IMG/VR virus record: IMGVR_UViG_2562617087_000024
Direction: 5' to 3' (one strand)
Source of the DNA: a virus
Lineage: Duplodnaviria; Heunggongvirae; Uroviricota; Caudoviricetes
Length of the DNA: 64,000 nt
Position numbers and translations under genes: made by a program. Below are positions 31,490-38,273 of this stretch, piece by piece. Numbering within the stretch: position 1 is the first letter of the stretch; each line of letters begins with the position of its first letter. The notes below the pieces were generated by a model. The model saw only the letters and a program-made list of their open reading frames with translations, had not been told where the DNA came from and did no database searches.

Positions 31490-32539
31490 GTGCGGGTATT
31501 ACTTCGACCTGTTCTGGTACCGGAACTCGGTCTGGTTATCGTTAAGCCAGGCCGTGAATCAATGTCAGCATTCCATAACGGCAGAATACTGGTGGAGCCG
31601 GAACCAAAAAGCATGCGAGCTCTGCCGTCCGGGGTTGTACCTGCCGTTCACCAGCCGCTGGCGGAAGATAAATCACTACTGCCATTTTTCAGCGATGAGC
31701 GGGTGATCCGTGCTGCGGGTGGCGCTGGTGCACTGTCTGACTGGTTATTACGTCACGTGAAATCCTGCCAGTGGCTACACGGTGATTATCATCACAGCGA
31801 AACCGTCATTCACCGTTACGGTACCGGCGCGATGGTGTTGTGCTGGCACTGCGACAACCAGCTGCGGGAGCAGACATCTGATTCACTGGATCAACTTGCT
31901 CAACAGAATCTGGCCGCCTGGATGATTGACATCATCCGTCACGCAATGAATGGCGCACAGGAGCGTGAATTATCTCTGGCTGAATTATCCTGGTGGGCGG
32001 CCTGCAATCAGGTGGTGGATGCACTACCTGAGGCAGTAGCGCGTCGTTCTCTGGGATTACCGGCGGAAAAAATCCGCTCCGTATACCGTGAAAGCGACAT
32101 CATACCGGGAGAACAGACCGCCACCAGCATACTGAAGCAGCGCACAAAAAATATTGCGCTACCGCCTCACACCCACCAGCAACAGAACCCACCACAGGAA
32201 AAGACGGTGGTCAGCATTGCCGTTGATCCGGAGTCTCCGGAATCCTTCATGAAACGACCTAAACGTCGCCGCTGGGTAAATGAGAAATACACACGCTGGG
32301 TAAAGACACAGCCGTGTGCGTGTTGTGGTAAGCCAGCCGACGATCCGCATCACCTGATTGGTCATGGTCAGGGCGGAATGGGGACAAAATCTCACGATAT
32401 TTTCACGCTACCGCTGTGTCGGGAGCATCACAACGAGCTTCATGCGGATCCGCTGGCGTTCGAAGAAAAGCATGGTTCTCAGGTTGATTTAATTTTTCGT
32501 TTTCTTGATCACGCCTTTGCAACCGGCGTGCTCGGGTAA
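31490..32539 (+). CDS. phage protein with C-terminal HNH-like Cys/His cluster (DUF968 suspected)
   Basis: 349 aa; C-terminal CACCGKPADDPHHLIGHGQGG…CREHHNELH; ggagg RBS, GTG start. Confidence 0.55.
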   Translation: MRVLLRPVLVPELGLVIVKPGRESMSAFHNGRILVEPEPKSMRALPSGVVPAVHQPLAEDKSLLPFFSDERVIRAAGGAGALSDWLLRHVKSCQWLHGDYHHSETVIHRYGTGAMVLCWHCDNQLREQTSDSLDQLAQQNLAAWMIDIIRHAMNGAQERELSLAELSWWAACNQVVDALPEAVARRSLGLPAEKIRSVYRESDIIPGEQTATSILKQRTKNIALPPHTHQQQNPPQEKTVVSIAVDPESPESFMKRPKRRRWVNEKYTRWVKTQPCACCGKPADDPHHLIGHGQGGMGTKSHDIFTLPLCREHHNELHADPLAFEEKHGSQVDLIFRFLDHAFATGVLG

Positions 32540-32551
32540 AAGAGGTGACTG

Positions 32552-32926
32552 ATGCTCATAGATTTGGTTTTACCTTACCCGCCGACGGTGAACACTTACT
32601 GGCGACGCCGTGGCAGCACATATTTTGTATCAAAAGCCGGGAAGCGTTATCGCCGGGCAGTGGCGCTTATTGTTCGCCAGCAGCGACTGAAATTAAGCCT
32701 GTCCGGACGGCTGGCAATAAAAATTATTGCAGAGCCACCGGATAAGCGCCGCCGCGACCTGGACAATATCCTGAAAGCACCGCTGGATGCGCTGACGCAC
32801 GCGGGGTTGTTAATGGACGATGAGCAGTTTGATGAAATCAATATTGTACGTGGAAAGCCAGTATCTGGTGGACGTCTGGGGGTGAAGATTTACCCCATAA
32901 TGCTTGAAGGGCAGGTCAAAAAATGA
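32552..32926 (+). CDS. rusA: Holliday junction resolvase RusA
   Basis: 124 aa; …DKRRRDLDNILKAPLDALTHAGLLMDDEQ… matches the RusA catalytic region. Confidence 0.85.
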   Translation: MLIDLVLPYPPTVNTYWRRRGSTYFVSKAGKRYRRAVALIVRQQRLKLSLSGRLAIKIIAEPPDKRRRDLDNILKAPLDALTHAGLLMDDEQFDEINIVRGKPVSGGRLGVKIYPIMLEGQVKK

Positions 32927-33744
32927 AACTGGAAGATTTACCGAAATACTACTCCCCAAAATCCCCTGGCCTGACCGATGCATCGGCCTCAACGTCAAAA
33001 GATGCGCTGAGTATCACTGATGTGATGGCCGCGCAGGGCATGACACAGAATCGGGCTGAGATGGGGTTTTCTGCGTTCCTTGGGAAAATGGGCATTAGTA
33101 TGAATGACAGAGAGCGGGCAACAGAATTGCTGACAGAATATGCACTCAGTCGGTGTGATCGCGTGGCGGCGTTAAGAAAACTCCCGGCAGAAATAAAACC
33201 GGCAGTGATGCGTATTATGGCTTCGTATGCGTTTGAAGATTATGCCCGTAGCGCGGCGAGCAAAAAACAGTGCCCCTGCTGTCACGGAAAAAAATTTATT
33301 GAAAGCGAGGTTTTTACAAACAAGATCCAGTATCCGGATGGTAAGCCGCCAGTGTGGGCAAAGTGCACAAAAGGCGTGTATCCGTCTTACTGGGAGGAAT
33401 GGAAAAAAGTCAGGGAGGTGGTAAAAGTTGCCTGTCCGGAGTGTGGAGGGAAGGGAGAGGTATCCACTGCCTGTAAAGATTGTCGTGGGCGCGGTGTTGC
33501 CATTCATCGTGAAGAGTCGGAAAAACAGGGTGTGCCGGTTTTCAGAAACTGTCAGCGTTGTGGTGGGCGTGGCTATGAAAGATTACCTTCAACGGAGGCA
33601 TTTAATGCCATATGTAATGTAACCGATGCCATATCTCTTGATACATGGAAAAAAACAGTTAAACGTTTTTACGATACGCTGGTGGTGCAGTTTGATATTG
33701 AAGAAGCATGGGCAGAACAACAACTGAAAAAGGTGACCAGATAG
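32923..33744 (+). CDS. putative late-gene antiterminator (Q-like) with multiple CxxC zinc fingers
   Basis: 273 aa between rusA and the late promoter/terminator; four CxxCxGxG motifs. Confidence 0.5.
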   Translation: MKLEDLPKYYSPKSPGLTDASASTSKDALSITDVMAAQGMTQNRAEMGFSAFLGKMGISMNDRERATELLTEYALSRCDRVAALRKLPAEIKPAVMRIMASYAFEDYARSAASKKQCPCCHGKKFIESEVFTNKIQYPDGKPPVWAKCTKGVYPSYWEEWKKVREVVKVACPECGGKGEVSTACKDCRGRGVAIHREESEKQGVPVFRNCQRCGGRGYERLPSTEAFNAICNVTDAISLDTWKKTVKRFYDTLVVQFDIEEAWAEQQLKKVTR

Positions 33745-33752
33745 CTTTGTTG

Positions 33753-33790
33753 ATTTTTCCCGAATCTGTGGTAAATTTGCCCAAACGATG
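33753..33790 (+). promoter_or_regulatory. candidate late promoter (pR'-like): TTGATT …16 nt… TGgTAAATT
   Basis: Sigma70-like -35 and extended -10 just downstream of the Q-like gene. Confidence 0.3.
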
Positions 33791-33825
33791 GGCGTTTTAT
33801 GCCTGACGTTAGAAGATTTTTTACA

Positions 33826-33851
33826 CCCCGCCGCCTGGCGGGTTTTTTATG
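33826..33851 (+). terminator. candidate tR'-like intrinsic terminator
   Basis: cccgcc-gcct-ggcggg hairpin followed by TTTTTT, about 40 nt after the candidate late promoter. Confidence 0.45.
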
Positions 33852-33970
33852 ACTGAAATCGCGTCAGTACAGTAAACGCGCTGGTGGCGGTGAATACCGG
33901 TCTTTCAGCTTGCTGGCTTTTTTGACAAGAGTTATTGGTGTGTCACGTTAACCGAAAAAGGGAAAAAGAC

Positions 33971-34168
33971 ATGCTGAAACAGCAGGATATGACAGAAACT
34001 GCCAGAGCAGTGTTTAATGAATTAAGCGTCACCGAACCGGCGACAGTCGGGGAGATTGCGCAGAATACTTACCTTTCACGCGAACGCTGCCAGTTAATAC
34101 TGACCCAGCTTGTTATGGCGGGTCTGGCAGACTATCAGTTCGGTTGTTACAGACGCCTTCAGTCCTGA
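33971..34168 (+). CDS. small winged-helix-like protein (65 aa)
   Basis: ATG with aaaggga RBS; immediately upstream of the methyltransferase gene. Confidence 0.45.
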   Translation: MLKQQDMTETARAVFNELSVTEPATVGEIAQNTYLSRERCQLILTQLVMAGLADYQFGCYRRLQS

Positions 34169-34318
34169 AGGCTTTTTTATTTGTGGTAAATGGGCGACTG
34201 GTGGGTGTTAGGGGCACTCACCAGCCATCTGCTCATGCGTCTGGATCACAAGCAAACCTCAGGCCCACTGCTTTGCGCAAAAGCGGTATGAGCCTATCAG
34301 AGACAGGCTTAATGATCC

Positions 34319-35377
34319 ATGTTTAATACTGTAAAAATATCCAGTTGTGAGTTAATCAACGCCGACTGCCTGGAATTTATCCGGTCGTTACCCGAAAATT
34401 CTGTTGACCTGATAGTCACGGACCCGCCGTACTTTAAAGTGAAGCCTGAGGGCTGGGATAACCAGTGGACGGGTGATGAGGATTACCTGAAATGGCTGGA
34501 CCAGTGTCTGGCGCAGTTCTGGCGGGTGCTGAAACCTGCCGGAAGTCTTTACCTGTTCTGTGGCCATCGCCTGGCATCTGACATTGAAATCATGATGCGT
34601 GAACGCTTCAGTGTGCTGAACCATATTATCTGGGCGAAGCCGTCCGGACGCTGGAACGGGTGCAACAAGGAAAGCCTGAGGGCGTATTTCCCCGCCACAG
34701 AGCGCATTCTGTTCGCGGAACATTATCAGGGGCCGTATCGTCCGAAAGATGCCGGGTATGAGGCGAAGGGCAGGGCACTGAAACAGCATGTGATGGCTCC
34801 GCTGATTTCTTACTTTCGTGATGCGCGTGCTGCCCTGGGGATAACGGCAAAACAGATAGTGGATGCCACAGGAAAGAAAAACATGGTGTCGCACTGGTTC
34901 AGTGCCAGTCAGTGGCAGCTACCGAACGAAAGCGATTATCTGAAATTACAGGCGCTGTTTGCCCGGGTGGCAGAAGAGAAGCATCAGCGCGGTGAACTGG
35001 AAAAGCCCCACCACCAGCTGCTGGAGACGTATACTTCACTGAACCGGCAGTATGCGGAACTGCAGAGTGAATATAAACATCTGCGGCGGTATTTTGGCGT
35101 GACGGCGCAGGTGCCGTACACGGATGTGTGGACGCATAAACCGGTGCAGTACTATCCCGGGAAACATCCGTGCGAAAAACCGGCAGAAATGCTGCAGCAG
35201 ATAATCAGTGCGAGCAGTCGTCCGGGTGACCTGGTTGCAGATTTCTTCATGGGGTCGGGTTCGACAGTCAAAGCCGCGATGGCGCTGGGGCGTCGTGCAA
35301 CTGGCGTTGAGCTGGAGACTGAACGTTTTGAGCAGACGGTCAGGGAAGTACAGGATTTAGTCAGTCAGAACGGATGA
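34319..35377 (+). CDS. DNA N6-adenine/N4-cytosine methyltransferase (DPPY motif), orphan
   Basis: 352 aa; motif IV DPPY (LIVTDPPYF) and C-terminal AdoMet-binding FxGxG (DFFMGSGST); no adjacent restriction endonuclease ORF. Confidence 0.85.
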   Translation: MFNTVKISSCELINADCLEFIRSLPENSVDLIVTDPPYFKVKPEGWDNQWTGDEDYLKWLDQCLAQFWRVLKPAGSLYLFCGHRLASDIEIMMRERFSVLNHIIWAKPSGRWNGCNKESLRAYFPATERILFAEHYQGPYRPKDAGYEAKGRALKQHVMAPLISYFRDARAALGITAKQIVDATGKKNMVSHWFSASQWQLPNESDYLKLQALFARVAEEKHQRGELEKPHHQLLETYTSLNRQYAELQSEYKHLRRYFGVTAQVPYTDVWTHKPVQYYPGKHPCEKPAEMLQQIISASSRPGDLVADFFMGSGSTVKAAMALGRRATGVELETERFEQTVREVQDLVSQNG

Positions 35378-35417
35378 TATTGCAGGATTAGTTACGTACC
35401 GTTATTATCCTGCGCCC

Positions 35418-35493
35418 GGCCCTTTAGCTCAGTGGTGAGAGCGAGCGACGCATAATCGCCAGGTCGCTGGTTCGAATCCAGTACAACGCGCCA
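35418..35493 (+). pseudogene. degenerate tRNA-like sequence (ileZ-type tRNA-Ile2 remnant)
   Basis: ggccctttagctcagtggtgagagc…ggttcgaatcc has intact D- and T-arms but G at position 33 and a 3' acceptor strand that cannot pair with the 5' end. Confidence 0.5.
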
Positions 35494-35970
35494 CACTTAT
35501 TTTCCCTGGCTCGCTTTTGCGGGCCTTTTTTTAAATGTCTCACAATTCAGGCGGTTGACTGTTGTCTGGTTTGCGGGGAGTTTGTTAAAAGAAACTGGCA
35601 TGGTGAATCCCCCTGTGCGGAGGGGCAATCAGCAACCAGGTATATGTGATAATCGCGGATTCAGGTGCTGATACTGAATTCACCGGGAGGCACCCGGCAC
35701 CATGCAAGAAAAAGAATGTGCATGCAAACATGCCCCTCTCCGGAGGGGCTTTTTTATGGGTAAAAAATGCCCGAATGGGTTCGGGCAATAGCATGAGATA
35801 CTGATATTGTTGTGTTGTTATCGTGTGGATTTTAACCAGGGTTTATCAGGCTGCGCAACTGCGTGGCCTTTTTTCATTTCTTGGGCTGTAGTCCCCGTGT
35901 GTCATTCAGGCTTCCGGACTACAGCCCACTCCATATCTGATTTAATACACTATCCCGGCCGGGAGGAATA

Positions 35971-37917
35971 ATGACATTTAAACATTATGATGTTGTCAGG
36001 GCGGCGTCGCCGTCAGACCTTGCTGATGCACTTGCGCAAAAAATTCGTGAAGGATGGCAACCATACGGTGGGCCGTTTTCTTCGTATACGGATGATGGCG
36101 CAGCACTTATTCAGGCGATTGTCGCAGAAGGTGATGTGAGCACACCTGTTGTGGTGAAGCTGACAGGTGGAGAAGGTGCAGTAATCAGCGCCACCAGAGA
36201 CCCGGAGTATTACTTTATTGTGGTTCTGGCGGGGCAGTCAAACAGCATGGCATATGGTGAAGGCCTTCCGCTGCCGGAGACATATGACCGTCCGGACCCG
36301 CGTATTAAGCAGCTGGCGCGCCGCAGTACGGTGACACCGGGCGGTGTCGCCTGTAAATATAACGACATCATTCCGGCGGACCATTGTCTGCATGATGTGC
36401 AGGACATGAGCCGCCTTAACCATCCGAAAGCGGACCTGTCAAAGGGGCAGTACGGAACCGTGGGGCAGGGGCTGCATATCGCCAAAAAATTGCTGCCGTT
36501 TATACCGGCGAATGCGGGCATTCTGCTGGTTCCGTGCTGTCGTGGTGGTTCAGCGTTCACCACCGGAGCTGATGGCACATACAGTGACGCGAGTGGTGCT
36601 TCGGAGAATTCAACCCGCTGGGGTGTGGACAAGCCGCTGTATAAGGACCTTATCGGTCGAACAAAAGCAGCACTGAAGAAGAACCCGAAAAATGTGCTGT
36701 TTGCCGTGGTGTGGATGCAGGGGGAATTTGATTTTGGCGGTACGCCGGCAAATCACGCAGCACAGTTTGGTGCGCTGGTTGATAAATTCCGTGCAGACCT
36801 GGCGGATATGGCAGGTCAGTGCGTCGGTGGCTCTGCTGACGGTGTTCCCTGGATATGCGGGGACACGACGTATTTCTGGAAGCAGAAGAACGAAGCCACC
36901 TACCAGACGGTGTACGGCAGCTACAAAAACAAAACGGAAAAAAATATCCATTTCGTACCGTTCATGACGGATGAGAACGGGGTGAATGTGCCGACGAACA
37001 AACCGGAAGAAGACCCGGACATTCCGGGTATCGGATATTACGGTTCGAAATGGCGTGACAGCTCAGCCACCTGGACGTCACAGGACAGGGCGAGCCATTT
37101 CAGCGCCTGGGCACGCCGTGGGATTATTTCCGACCGTCTGGCAACGGCGATTTTGCGCCATGCGGGAAGAGTGGCGCTAAACGCGGGGGCATCATCGACA
37201 GTATCAGAGGTGCGCCCGTCATCGCCTTCCGGTGCAGAAGCCACAGGCATCACAACACTGCTCTCTTACCTTGCCAGCGAGTCAGAGGGAAGCCTGAAAG
37301 TACAGGGATGGTCAGCCAGTGGCGGCAGGGCAGAAGTGGTCAGCGATGCGGAGGGAACCGGAGGTAAGGCAGTGAAGCTGACCAAGGAAGCCGGTAAAAG
37401 CAGCTGGGTGCTGGAGTACGCCGCGGGCAACGGTGCGGCTCTGTTACAGAAAGGGGGGCAGATTCGCTGCCGCTTTAAGGTTTCGGGAGCGCTGGCTGCG
37501 AACCAGTATGTTATGGCGTTTTACTGGCCGGTATCTTCACTGCCACAGGGCGTTGCCCTGACCGGAGACGGGGGGAATAACCTGCTGGCAGCGTTCTACA
37601 TCCAGACAGATGCAAAAGACCTGAATGTGATGTACCACAATGCGAAAGTGGCGACAAACAACCTGAAACTGGGAAGCTTTGGCGCATTTGATAACGAATG
37701 GCATGCGCTGGCTTTCCGCTTTGCCGGGAATAACAGCCTTCAGGTGACGCCGGTTATTGATGGTCAGGATGGTACACCGTTCACGCTGACGCAGTCACCG
37801 GTCAGTGCCTTTGCGGCGGATAAACTGCATGTGACAGACATTACCAGAGGTGCGACTTACCCGGTACTGATAGACAGCATTGCGGTGGAAGTGAACAGCA
37901 CAGACACTGCGGCATGA
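35971..37917 (+). CDS. prophage sialate O-acetylesterase NanS-p-like protein
   Basis: 648 aa in the Q-to-lysis position where NanS-p sits in related prophages; esterase-type GQSN motif; gggagga RBS. Confidence 0.8.
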   Translation: MTFKHYDVVRAASPSDLADALAQKIREGWQPYGGPFSSYTDDGAALIQAIVAEGDVSTPVVVKLTGGEGAVISATRDPEYYFIVVLAGQSNSMAYGEGLPLPETYDRPDPRIKQLARRSTVTPGGVACKYNDIIPADHCLHDVQDMSRLNHPKADLSKGQYGTVGQGLHIAKKLLPFIPANAGILLVPCCRGGSAFTTGADGTYSDASGASENSTRWGVDKPLYKDLIGRTKAALKKNPKNVLFAVVWMQGEFDFGGTPANHAAQFGALVDKFRADLADMAGQCVGGSADGVPWICGDTTYFWKQKNEATYQTVYGSYKNKTEKNIHFVPFMTDENGVNVPTNKPEEDPDIPGIGYYGSKWRDSSATWTSQDRASHFSAWARRGIISDRLATAILRHAGRVALNAGASSTVSEVRPSSPSGAEATGITTLLSYLASESEGSLKVQGWSASGGRAEVVSDAEGTGGKAVKLTKEAGKSSWVLEYAAGNGAALLQKGGQIRCRFKVSGALAANQYVMAFYWPVSSLPQGVALTGDGGNNLLAAFYIQTDAKDLNVMYHNAKVATNNLKLGSFGAFDNEWHALAFRFAGNNSLQVTPVIDGQDGTPFTLTQSPVSAFAADKLHVTDITRGATYPVLIDSIAVEVNSTDTAA

Positions 37918-38273
37918 TAAAAAAACCGCCAGCGACAGGAATGGACGCTGGCGGTGGTAATACCTATGGAGAAAAAATAAAGGAACGATACTTTCGTGCT
38001 CTGGTTTTTTAAATGAAAACAGTTCTTATTGTCAACAATAACGGAAAGAAATTATGACATTTCTGAACCAGTTAATGCTGTACTTCTGTACGGTGGTCTG
38101 TGTGCTGTATCTCCTTTCGGGTGGGTACAGGGCCATGCGTGACTTCTGGCGCAGACAGATTGACAAAAGGGCCGCTGAGAAAATCAGCGCCAGTCAGTCA
38201 GCCGGAAGCAAACCCGAAGAGCCGCTCATTTAGCGGCAACTTTCTTAATCACACCTTTCGACGAGAAAATCCC

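Follow-up and report, generated by a model that had tools for sequence, protein, structure and literature searches.

Two terminators and a predicted start-site-sequestering leader RNA precede an M.EcoGII-type methyltransferase gene in a lambdoid prophage

In the com-mom module of phage Mu, a toxic and promiscuous adenine-modifying enzyme encoded in a late unit is subject to translational control; Com is a zinc-finger protein, and Mom is not an S-adenosylmethionine (SAM) methyltransferase. Small regulators are also known from restriction-modification (R-M) systems, where C proteins, which carry a helix-turn-helix (HTH) of the XRE type, time the expression of the endonuclease through C-box palindromes. 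Here, we analyse a prophage module that bears some likeness to each of these, found in 64,000 nucleotides of viral DNA (Caudoviricetes; IMG/VR record IMGVR_UViG_2562617087_000024), a stretch referred to below as the window. The module comprises a small open reading frame (ORF) for a winged-helix protein, a conserved leader RNA, and a methyltransferase gene of the M.EcoGII type. Taken as a whole, the module probably provides a Q-dependent, triple-guarded anti-restriction hypermethylase, in which the enzyme is known and its control is uncharacterised.

M.EcoGII and M.EcoGI come from E. coli O104:H4 C227-11, and M.EcoGII has become both the paradigm of a non-specific adenine methyltransferase and a widely used reagent (chromatin footprinting, RNA tools). 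According to its original description (Murray et al. 2018, PMC5778455), the enzyme methylates adenine of DNA and RNA alike, whatever the sequence around it, belongs to a family with very many members among E. coli prophages, and has a very similar counterpart in phage 1720a-02. The same paper reports no methylation signal from lysogens for M.EcoGI or M.EcoGII, no expression of M.EcoGII in the lysogen, and harm from constitutive expression; by the account of its discoverers, the enzyme stays silent in the prophage from which it comes and is toxic once it is expressed, and the papers considered here offer no mechanism. Mom and M.EcoGII have been paired elsewhere as silent and toxic enzymes (PMC12707154). 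The methylation signal is absent, too, for the homologues of M.EcoGI and M.EcoGII in O111 Shiga toxin-producing E. coli (STEC), and reconstructed ancestors of the M.EcoGII clade retained non-specificity.

The two protein-coding genes of the module lie on the + strand, in one common reading frame, and exactly where a sequence-only reading of the window had placed them downstream of Q:

33971..34168, + strand: small winged-helix protein gene, 65 amino acids (aa), in PHROG 331; PGAP name 'TrmB family transcriptional regulator'; AAGGGA Shine-Dalgarno sequence at 33958-33963
34319..35377, + strand: gene for an M.EcoGII-type, beta-class N6-adenine methyltransferase, 352 aa, assigned from a PF01555 match and an alignment with M.EcoGII

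The methyltransferase matches the Pfam family PF01555 (N6_N4_Mtase) over profile positions 1-219 of 221, with an E value of 6.7e-44 and 150.9 bits against a cut-off of 26.7. The order of its motifs is that of the beta class, namely DPPY (residues 35-38), a central target-recognition region, and a C-terminal FxGxG SAM-binding motif (FFMGSGST, residues 309-316), and both motifs are invariant in the alignment of its relatives (alignment A1). M.EcoGII and M.EcoGI share the PF01555 family, the motif order and the lambdoid prophage setting. Over the full length of M.EcoGII (PMC11551740 Table S1), 325 of 349 residues are identical, or about 93%, a figure that carries a small error, the comparison sequence having been taken from a machine-read supplementary table with a few reading errors. 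The two enzymes differ in length (349 aa for M.EcoGII and 352 aa here) and by about 24 substitutions; a corrected version of the table gave no exact look-up match for M.EcoGII, and no fetched cluster member was identical to it. At the nucleotide level, phage 1720a-02 is 97.8% identical to the window from 33827 to 35481. E. coli O157:H7 strains, TW14359 and EC4115 among them, match the region as a whole at 99.8% identity, and there its counterpart belongs to a lambdoid prophage beside an ompW fragment. Of 5426 complete E. coli genomes, 3468 contain a match (median, two places per genome), and so do 356 phage records. The 352-aa gene is an ordinary and very common prophage copy of an already characterised type, and the enzyme itself is known; for its identity and its placement in the late operon, taken jointly, our confidence is high. 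Since the prophage enzyme is about 93% identical to M.EcoGII, and since the reconstructed ancestors of the clade were non-specific, this copy is probably a non-specific adenine methyltransferase as well, and therefore no target motif would be expected. The prediction of a target motif from REBASE, put forward in the sequence-only reading, is moot for a relative this close of an enzyme that methylates adenine in any context.

The same reading had described the methyltransferase as solitary, and the endonuclease check agrees: at the 99.8%-identical TW14359 locus, the annotation of the surrounding 42 kb shows no restriction endonuclease. The sole nuclease-like gene nearby (31490-32539) encodes a protein of the DUF968 family whose C-terminal part is HNH-like (PHROG 96 'HNH endonuclease'). 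One could imagine that the pair is a remnant or variant of an R-M system, with the small ORF as controller and this HNH-type protein, encoded 1.8 kb upstream, as endonuclease. Indeed, in a sample of 80 loci around relatives of the methylase, one genome per species (out of an overall comparison base of about 200 related loci), the DUF968 gene lies at most 4 kb from the methylase in 33. It is absent from the other 47, however, and in the window it sits in the nin region, a delayed-early unit, with rusA (32552-32926, upstream of the Q gene) and Q between it and the methylase; we judge it to be an ordinary lambdoid nin-region gene and no cognate endonuclease. Moreover, a non-specific methylase offers an endonuclease no cognate site, and the small ORF encodes a winged helix with no XRE or HTH_3 match. 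The R-M explanation is already effectively refuted, and we give it next to no weight. What the module shares with R-M C proteins is a small protein with a DNA-binding fold encoded upstream of a methyltransferase; it differs in its fold, in the lack of an endonuclease, and in a conserved upstream motif that is not palindromic. The suggested likeness of the small ORF to controller proteins fails on these points, and also on its dispensability for the module.

How might a prophage keep such an enzyme silent? The first two candidate guards act on transcription:

32923..33744, + strand: Q antiterminator gene, 273 aa (PF03589 Antiterm, E=5.3e-52; PHROG 127/25523 anti-termination protein Q-like)
33750..33794, + strand: putative lambda-like late promoter PR', with -35-like TTGATT (33750-33755) and -10 TAAATT (33772-33777), then the AACGATGGG pause region
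33827..33849, + strand: tR'-type intrinsic terminator, CCCGCCGCCTGGCGGG followed by a T run (terminator scan), the left edge of a cassette common to Stx phages
34155..34178, + strand: second intrinsic terminator, GCCTTCAGTCCTGAAGGC followed by T6 (terminator scan), overlapping the stop codon of the small ORF and directly 5' of the leader

Because a lambda-like PR' and tR' follow Q, and a second terminator precedes the methylase, the module lies within a Q-dependent late unit, as the sequence-only reading had proposed for the pair, and the methylase is guarded by two terminators. The PR' assignment is suggested by similarity to lambda, an alignment with the lambda Q-end/PR' region giving the common core GGTAAATTTG.C..AACGATGGG. 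A consensus sigma-70 scan of 33500-36200 reported no promoter; PR' goes unreported by such a scan because only 8 of its 12 positions match. Homology to Stx phages with other Q types starts exactly at tR' (query position 83, equivalent to window position 33827), and a hairpin with a T run was found 5' of the leader in every locus inspected, including those that lack the small ORF. In lambda PR'-qut-tR' and in the StxS/EcOnc15 system (PMC7547250), as here, constitutive early termination is combined with Q-dependent read-through, and the PR' core of the window is nearly that of lambda. The difference is that a second terminator and a structured leader have been added here, specifically before the methylase.

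PR' followed by tR' (33745-33849) predicts a short constitutive RNA of about 65 nucleotides (nt), analogous to lambda 6S RNA or to the StxS/EcOnc15 RNA of Stx phages; an Rfam search of 33745-33849 returned only a chance-level isrK match (E=6.7).

The third candidate guard lies between the two genes, in a conserved leader with four helices and an alternative one (P0):

34179..34318, + strand: conserved structured leader RNA of the methyltransferase gene, about 135 nt when counted over 34185-34318 (alignments A3/A5, RNAalifold, covariance model R1)
34180-34187, + strand: P0 strand at the 5' edge of the leader, YUGUGR
34190-34236, + strand: P1, a long hairpin
34242-34253 (UGGAUCAC-AAGC) with 34307-34319 (GCUU-AA-UGAUCCA, including the A of AUG), + strand: P2, a long-range helix
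34258-34302, + strand: P3/P4, the inner helices

The gap between small ORF and methylase measures 146-154 nt across Enterobacteriaceae and Erwiniaceae, and the leader within it has a median nucleotide identity to the window of 0.79, as against 0.35 (saturation) at four-fold degenerate sites of the methylase. Both the leader and the small protein are better conserved than the enzyme. Covariance model R1 has a single match in the window (34179-34324, 127 bits). Outside Xenorhabdus and Photorhabdus, the leader is present in 45 of 47 loci, each time ending at the ATG of the methylase, and the loci without a small ORF all keep it except two (L027 and L037). Viral contigs were also retrieved by means of a sequence pattern from the leader, and in 113 of 113 the methylase begins 72-73 nt past that pattern; the leader was found exclusively adjacent to the methylase. 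A 60-aa ORF that overlaps it (34144-34326) was rejected as coding, in view of 1-nt indels and conservation that is not codon-periodic. Rfam 15 gave no match to 34179-34318 at E<=1 in a 5.5-kb scan, and a 601-base scan at E<=10 gave only chance-level miRNA matches; a literature search turned up no description of the leader. In the cited part of the M.EcoGII work, where the ORF alone was cloned (PMC5778455), the upstream winged-helix gene, the terminators and the leader are not described. The leader-based control architecture of the methylase thus appears undescribed in Rfam and the searched literature.

In Xenorhabdus and Photorhabdus, the leader is shorter and divergent and lies about 100 nt upstream of the methylase, with a hairpin that is often followed by a U run. 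These loci have a divergent small-ORF homologue (E about 1e-10), and their methylases are 65-67% similar to the E. coli enzyme, compared with 62% in Providencia, which keeps the full leader.

The fold of the leader is predicted in the single sequence (minimum free energy z=-3.3) as well as in the alignment by RNAalifold, and over 47 leader sequences 96% of cells are paired. Compensatory changes occur at 11 of 38 pairs, three of them in P2. Shuffled alignments give 3.2 such pairs, with 0 of 500 attaining the real count, and slid controls give 3-6; part of the structure was already contained in the model to which the alignment had been fitted. Compensatory changes are few because the leader is so conserved. 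The addition of 75 viral loci brought little new diversity, because the search pattern had demanded an exact core.

The proposed function of this fold follows from the position of P2. The methylase has no canonical Shine-Dalgarno sequence, and near its start only UGAUC(C/U) complements 16S GGAUCA; this sole 16S-complementary stretch near the start codon, UGAUCCA (34313-34319), is the 3' strand of P2. Its 5' strand, UGGAUCAC (34242-34249), reproduces a GGAUCAC that 16S rRNA carries close to its 3' end. The 16S-like strand can also pair with the 5' edge of the leader, forming the alternative helix P0, which is predicted in transcripts truncated before the start region for nearly all 47 sequences; in full-length RNAs, the P0-containing fold lies a predicted 2-4 kcal/mol above the sequestering fold. 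These features make it reasonably likely that the leader is a translational control element that sequesters the start site. That it acts as a kinetic ON/OFF switch is a more tentative proposal, to which we give somewhat less than even chances. It is possible, though on the whole unlikely, that the leader founds a new class, a bistable cis-regulatory RNA that is reserved for M.EcoGII-type genes and switched by a specific factor. Candidates for such a factor would be the winged-helix protein, the methyltransferase itself (by autoregulation, possibly through N6-methyladenine on the leader), or a ligand such as SAM or S-adenosylhomocysteine; the winged-helix protein would then be a partner not recognised before, one that determines the timing or the substrate of this non-specific enzyme.

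Two GATC (Dam) sites, at 34244-34247 and 34314-34317, lie one on each strand of P2, and the one 5' of the ATG is nearly invariant. A Dam-dependent effect exists at Mu mom.

The comparison with Mu raises the question of whether the small protein acts on this leader as a Com-like translational activator, or as some other leader regulator, binding the leader RNA (or its DNA) and shifting it from the sequestering to the open fold. The architecture parallels com-mom in that a small protein gene lies directly upstream, a leader structure is predicted to occlude the start region, and the gene so controlled is a late one for a toxic, promiscuous adenine-modifying enzyme; the leader is bistable by prediction; its unpaired stretches are strongly conserved, suggesting a bound factor; and small protein and leader alike are conserved beyond the enzyme. 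The parallel has its limits, however. The protein here is a winged helix, neither basic nor equipped with the zinc finger of Com, and the RNA, with four helices, is unrelated to that of Mu and much larger. The small protein is also dispensable in many loci: the leader persists unchanged where its gene is missing, in one case directly after Q and tR', and divergent variants of the small ORF (about 40-55 bits) stand alongside canonical leaders. Considering these points, we regard a Com-like role as unlikely.

What, then, is the small protein? That it is encoded by a real gene under purifying selection is indicated by homologues in 340 clusters at 90% identity across Enterobacterales (Escherichia, Salmonella, Klebsiella, Citrobacter, Buttiauxella, Pantoea and others), by amino-acid identities of 81-94% between genera, by low non-synonymous divergence (dN 0.04-0.2) against saturated synonymous divergence (dS), and by a usable Shine-Dalgarno sequence. 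Its AlphaFold model (mean confidence, pLDDT, of 91) shows a canonical H1-b-H2-H3-wing winged helix, with template-modelling (TM) scores of 0.6-0.8 to MarR/IclR-type winged-helix domains. Pfam gives only sub-threshold winged-helix matches (TrmB, MarR_2 and HTH_24; E 1e-3 to 1e-2), which together with the model upholds the earlier description of the ORF as winged-helix-like. Foldseek searches of the PDB and of viral models gave generic winged-helix matches only (E about 1e-3), among them MarR, IclR and the winged-helix dimerisation domains of O-methyltransferases, and therefore no functional assignment follows. NCBIfam has no model for the protein, PHROG 331 carries no assigned function, and a literature search turned up no description of a function. 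The protein has just two cysteines and a net charge of about -1, as counted from the sequence. Lambda orf-64, which occupies the equivalent position, was considered as a relative and found to be unrelated.

Of the 80 species-level loci, about 58-60 have the small ORF immediately before the methylase and on its strand, and these include Escherichia at one end and Xenorhabdus, Photorhabdus and Providencia at the other; among viral loci, 101 of 111 have it. Elsewhere its slot is filled by unrelated genes, or Q and tR' immediately precede the methylase. Conversely, the methylase is present in 63 of 73 prophage contigs that were found through the small ORF, and the remaining ten share one common deletion that joins window position 34208 to 35528, removing the leader from the middle of P1 onwards, the methylase and a tRNA remnant, and leaving the small ORF and its terminator intact. 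The recurrence of this deletion indicates that leader, methylase and tRNA behave as one cassette, and the small ORF is a frequent but separable, optional companion of the methylase. In deletion contigs (L094, L103, L112, L140, L144 and L158-L161), about 73 nt of other sequence stand in place of the lost part.

A second way in which the small protein could act on the module is as an accessory or specificity subunit that redirects or restrains the enzyme, for example towards phage DNA or particular RNA. The precedent is the PA8 system, in which M.EcoPA8orf6770P and PNB-2 form a 1:1 holoenzyme that prefers 16S rRNA, and in which the genes co-occur in >83% of strains (PMC10810198). PA8 is likewise a Stx-type lambdoid phage and has a co-occurring winged-helix gene immediately upstream of an adenine methyltransferase (Gong, Chakraborty and Koudelka 2023, PMC10810198), and the degree of co-occurrence is comparable here. 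Further support may be seen in the net charge of the small protein, which is unusual for a stand-alone nucleic-acid binder, in the O-methyltransferase dimerisation domains among its best Foldseek matches, and in the activity of M.EcoGII on RNA too (PMC5778455). Against this, the small protein has no sequence similarity to PNB-2, a protein of 143 aa, or to PNB-1 (BLASTP E 0.21 and 13, respectively), and the PA8 enzyme belongs to a different family (MT-A70, with DPPW, as against PF01555 with DPPY). The PA8 genes overlap and lie in the early region, whereas a terminator and a 150-nt regulated leader separate the genes here. Moreover, M.EcoGII is fully active alone (PMC5778455), about a quarter of the species-level loci do without the small ORF, and one prophage lineage keeps the small ORF after loss of the methylase. 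We consider a subunit role improbable.

Perhaps the two genes are mere neighbours, the small ORF being an independent moron of the late operon (for example, a DNA-binding factor with a target of its own) and the leader a constitutive damper that does not switch. Each element does occur without the other; in two viral loci (L122 and L124), the methyltransferase is 84% identical and the leader and small ORF 98%, so that the breakpoints of a recombination mosaic fall inside the module; and the small ORF has a conserved motif of its own upstream:

33909..33943, + strand: conserved non-coding motif U, CTTGCTG-N10-[C/A]AGAGTTAYMTGTRTG, upstream of the small ORF

It is less easy to explain on these terms why three families of Enterobacterales all keep the elements in one order, on one strand and at one spacing, and why the leader combines conserved unpaired positions with a nearly isoenergetic alternative fold, which exceed the needs of simple occlusion. 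This explanation is rather unlikely as it stands. For the small protein as such, we see even chances that it modulates the module in one way or another, whether Com-like on the leader or PNB-2-like as a partner of the methyltransferase; an unrelated late function is conceivable, at rather less than even chances.

Motif U is bipartite and non-palindromic, has invariant spacing, and is common to loci from Escherichia through Xenorhabdus and Providencia. Structure prediction gave no consensus RNA fold for it, and comparison by eye with the sigma-70, sigma-54, IHF and DnaA consensus sequences gave no convincing fit. It may serve as a promoter that needs an activator, or as a site to which a protein binds.

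The preferred account of the module as a Q-dependent, guarded hypermethylase, set beside the gene identities, architecture, conservation, covariation and co-occurrence observed directly, runs as follows. In the Q-dependent late operon, the methylase is the earliest gene to encode an enzyme. In the lysogen, transcripts from PR' would end at tR' (33827-33849), those that read through would end at the second terminator (34155-34178), and in any that continue the leader would pair its UGGAUCAC strand (34242-34249) with UGAUCCA (34313-34319) and so conceal the point at which translation starts. Once the prophage is induced, Q-modified RNA polymerase would pass both terminators; helix P0, the first to form on the nascent RNA, would leave the start region open, allowing a limited amount of enzyme to be made, so that the leader would have an on/off function. 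The enzyme would then hypermethylate replicating phage DNA and shield it from many restriction systems, while the 65-aa winged-helix protein would be made from this late transcript as well. The sequence-only reading had also suggested that the enzyme could protect phage DNA against restriction, a role already proposed for M.EcoGII (PMC12707154, PMC5778455).

A number of observations weigh against parts of this account. Several of the roughly 24 positions at which the enzyme differs from M.EcoGII lie in the target-recognition region. Most of the compensatory changes in the leader are supplied by Providencia and Morganella together with a handful of further loci, and helix P0 is built on conserved UGUG/CACA, without compensatory support. 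The conserved unpaired stretches of the leader suggest a bound factor. The Xenorhabdus and Photorhabdus loci (L049-L082) keep only a P1-like hairpin. Motif U, were it a promoter, could free part of the module from Q. Finally, the occurrence of small ORF and methylase each without the other weakens any obligatory functional link between them.

The silence of this copy in the lysogen is suggested by the two terminators, the sequestered start region, and the methylome reports on its homologues. The idea that the methyltransferase alters host gene expression during lysogeny, which the sequence-only reading had entertained, is unlikely on the same grounds, M.EcoGI, M.EcoGII and the STEC homologues being silent. 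For enterohaemorrhagic E. coli (EHEC), the cassette is probably not a lysogenic-conversion epigenetic regulator; it regularly forms the opening element of the late operon by which stx, too, is driven. More generally, two terminators and a predicted start-site-sequestering, possibly switchable leader provide a testable account of the silence of M.EcoGII-type enzymes, and the analysis brings to light a conserved winged-helix companion of the methylase.

The position of the module relative to stx differs from that first supposed, namely that the pair occupies the place where related phages carry stx. In phage Stx2a_1447, the order is small ORF, methylase, ileZ-argN-argO, stx2AB and nanS-p; phiP27 has the same order with stx2e, and in many further Stx phages the pair likewise lies upstream of tRNAs and stx. 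These phages carry both the pair and, downstream of it, the tRNAs and the toxin genes. In the window, stx is absent and its slot holds genes for small RNAs of the STnc100 and AgvB families, upstream of a NanS-p-type esterase gene (35971-37917; SASA/DUF6645/DUF1737 matches). The right end of the leader-methylase-tRNA cassette is marked by two features:

35424-35483, + strand: degenerate ileZ-like tRNA remnant (Rfam tRNA, 37 bits, model positions 7-64 only)
35508-35532, + strand: terminator at the right end of the cassette

ARAGORN calls no tRNA downstream of the methylase, where Rfam gives only the truncated tRNA-like match, and PGAP has a tRNA-Met at the position of TW14359 that corresponds to 35424-35493; all that the window keeps of the ileZ-argN-argO cluster known from Stx phages is this one degenerate remnant.

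The STnc100-family small RNA in the stx slot lies at 35569-35761 on the + strand (150 bits). It is abutted by the anti-GcvB small RNA AgvB on the opposite strand (35762-35823; 96.5 bits, with an AsxR-like match at 43 bits), and a weak Esr41-like match is found at 37917-37994 on the - strand.

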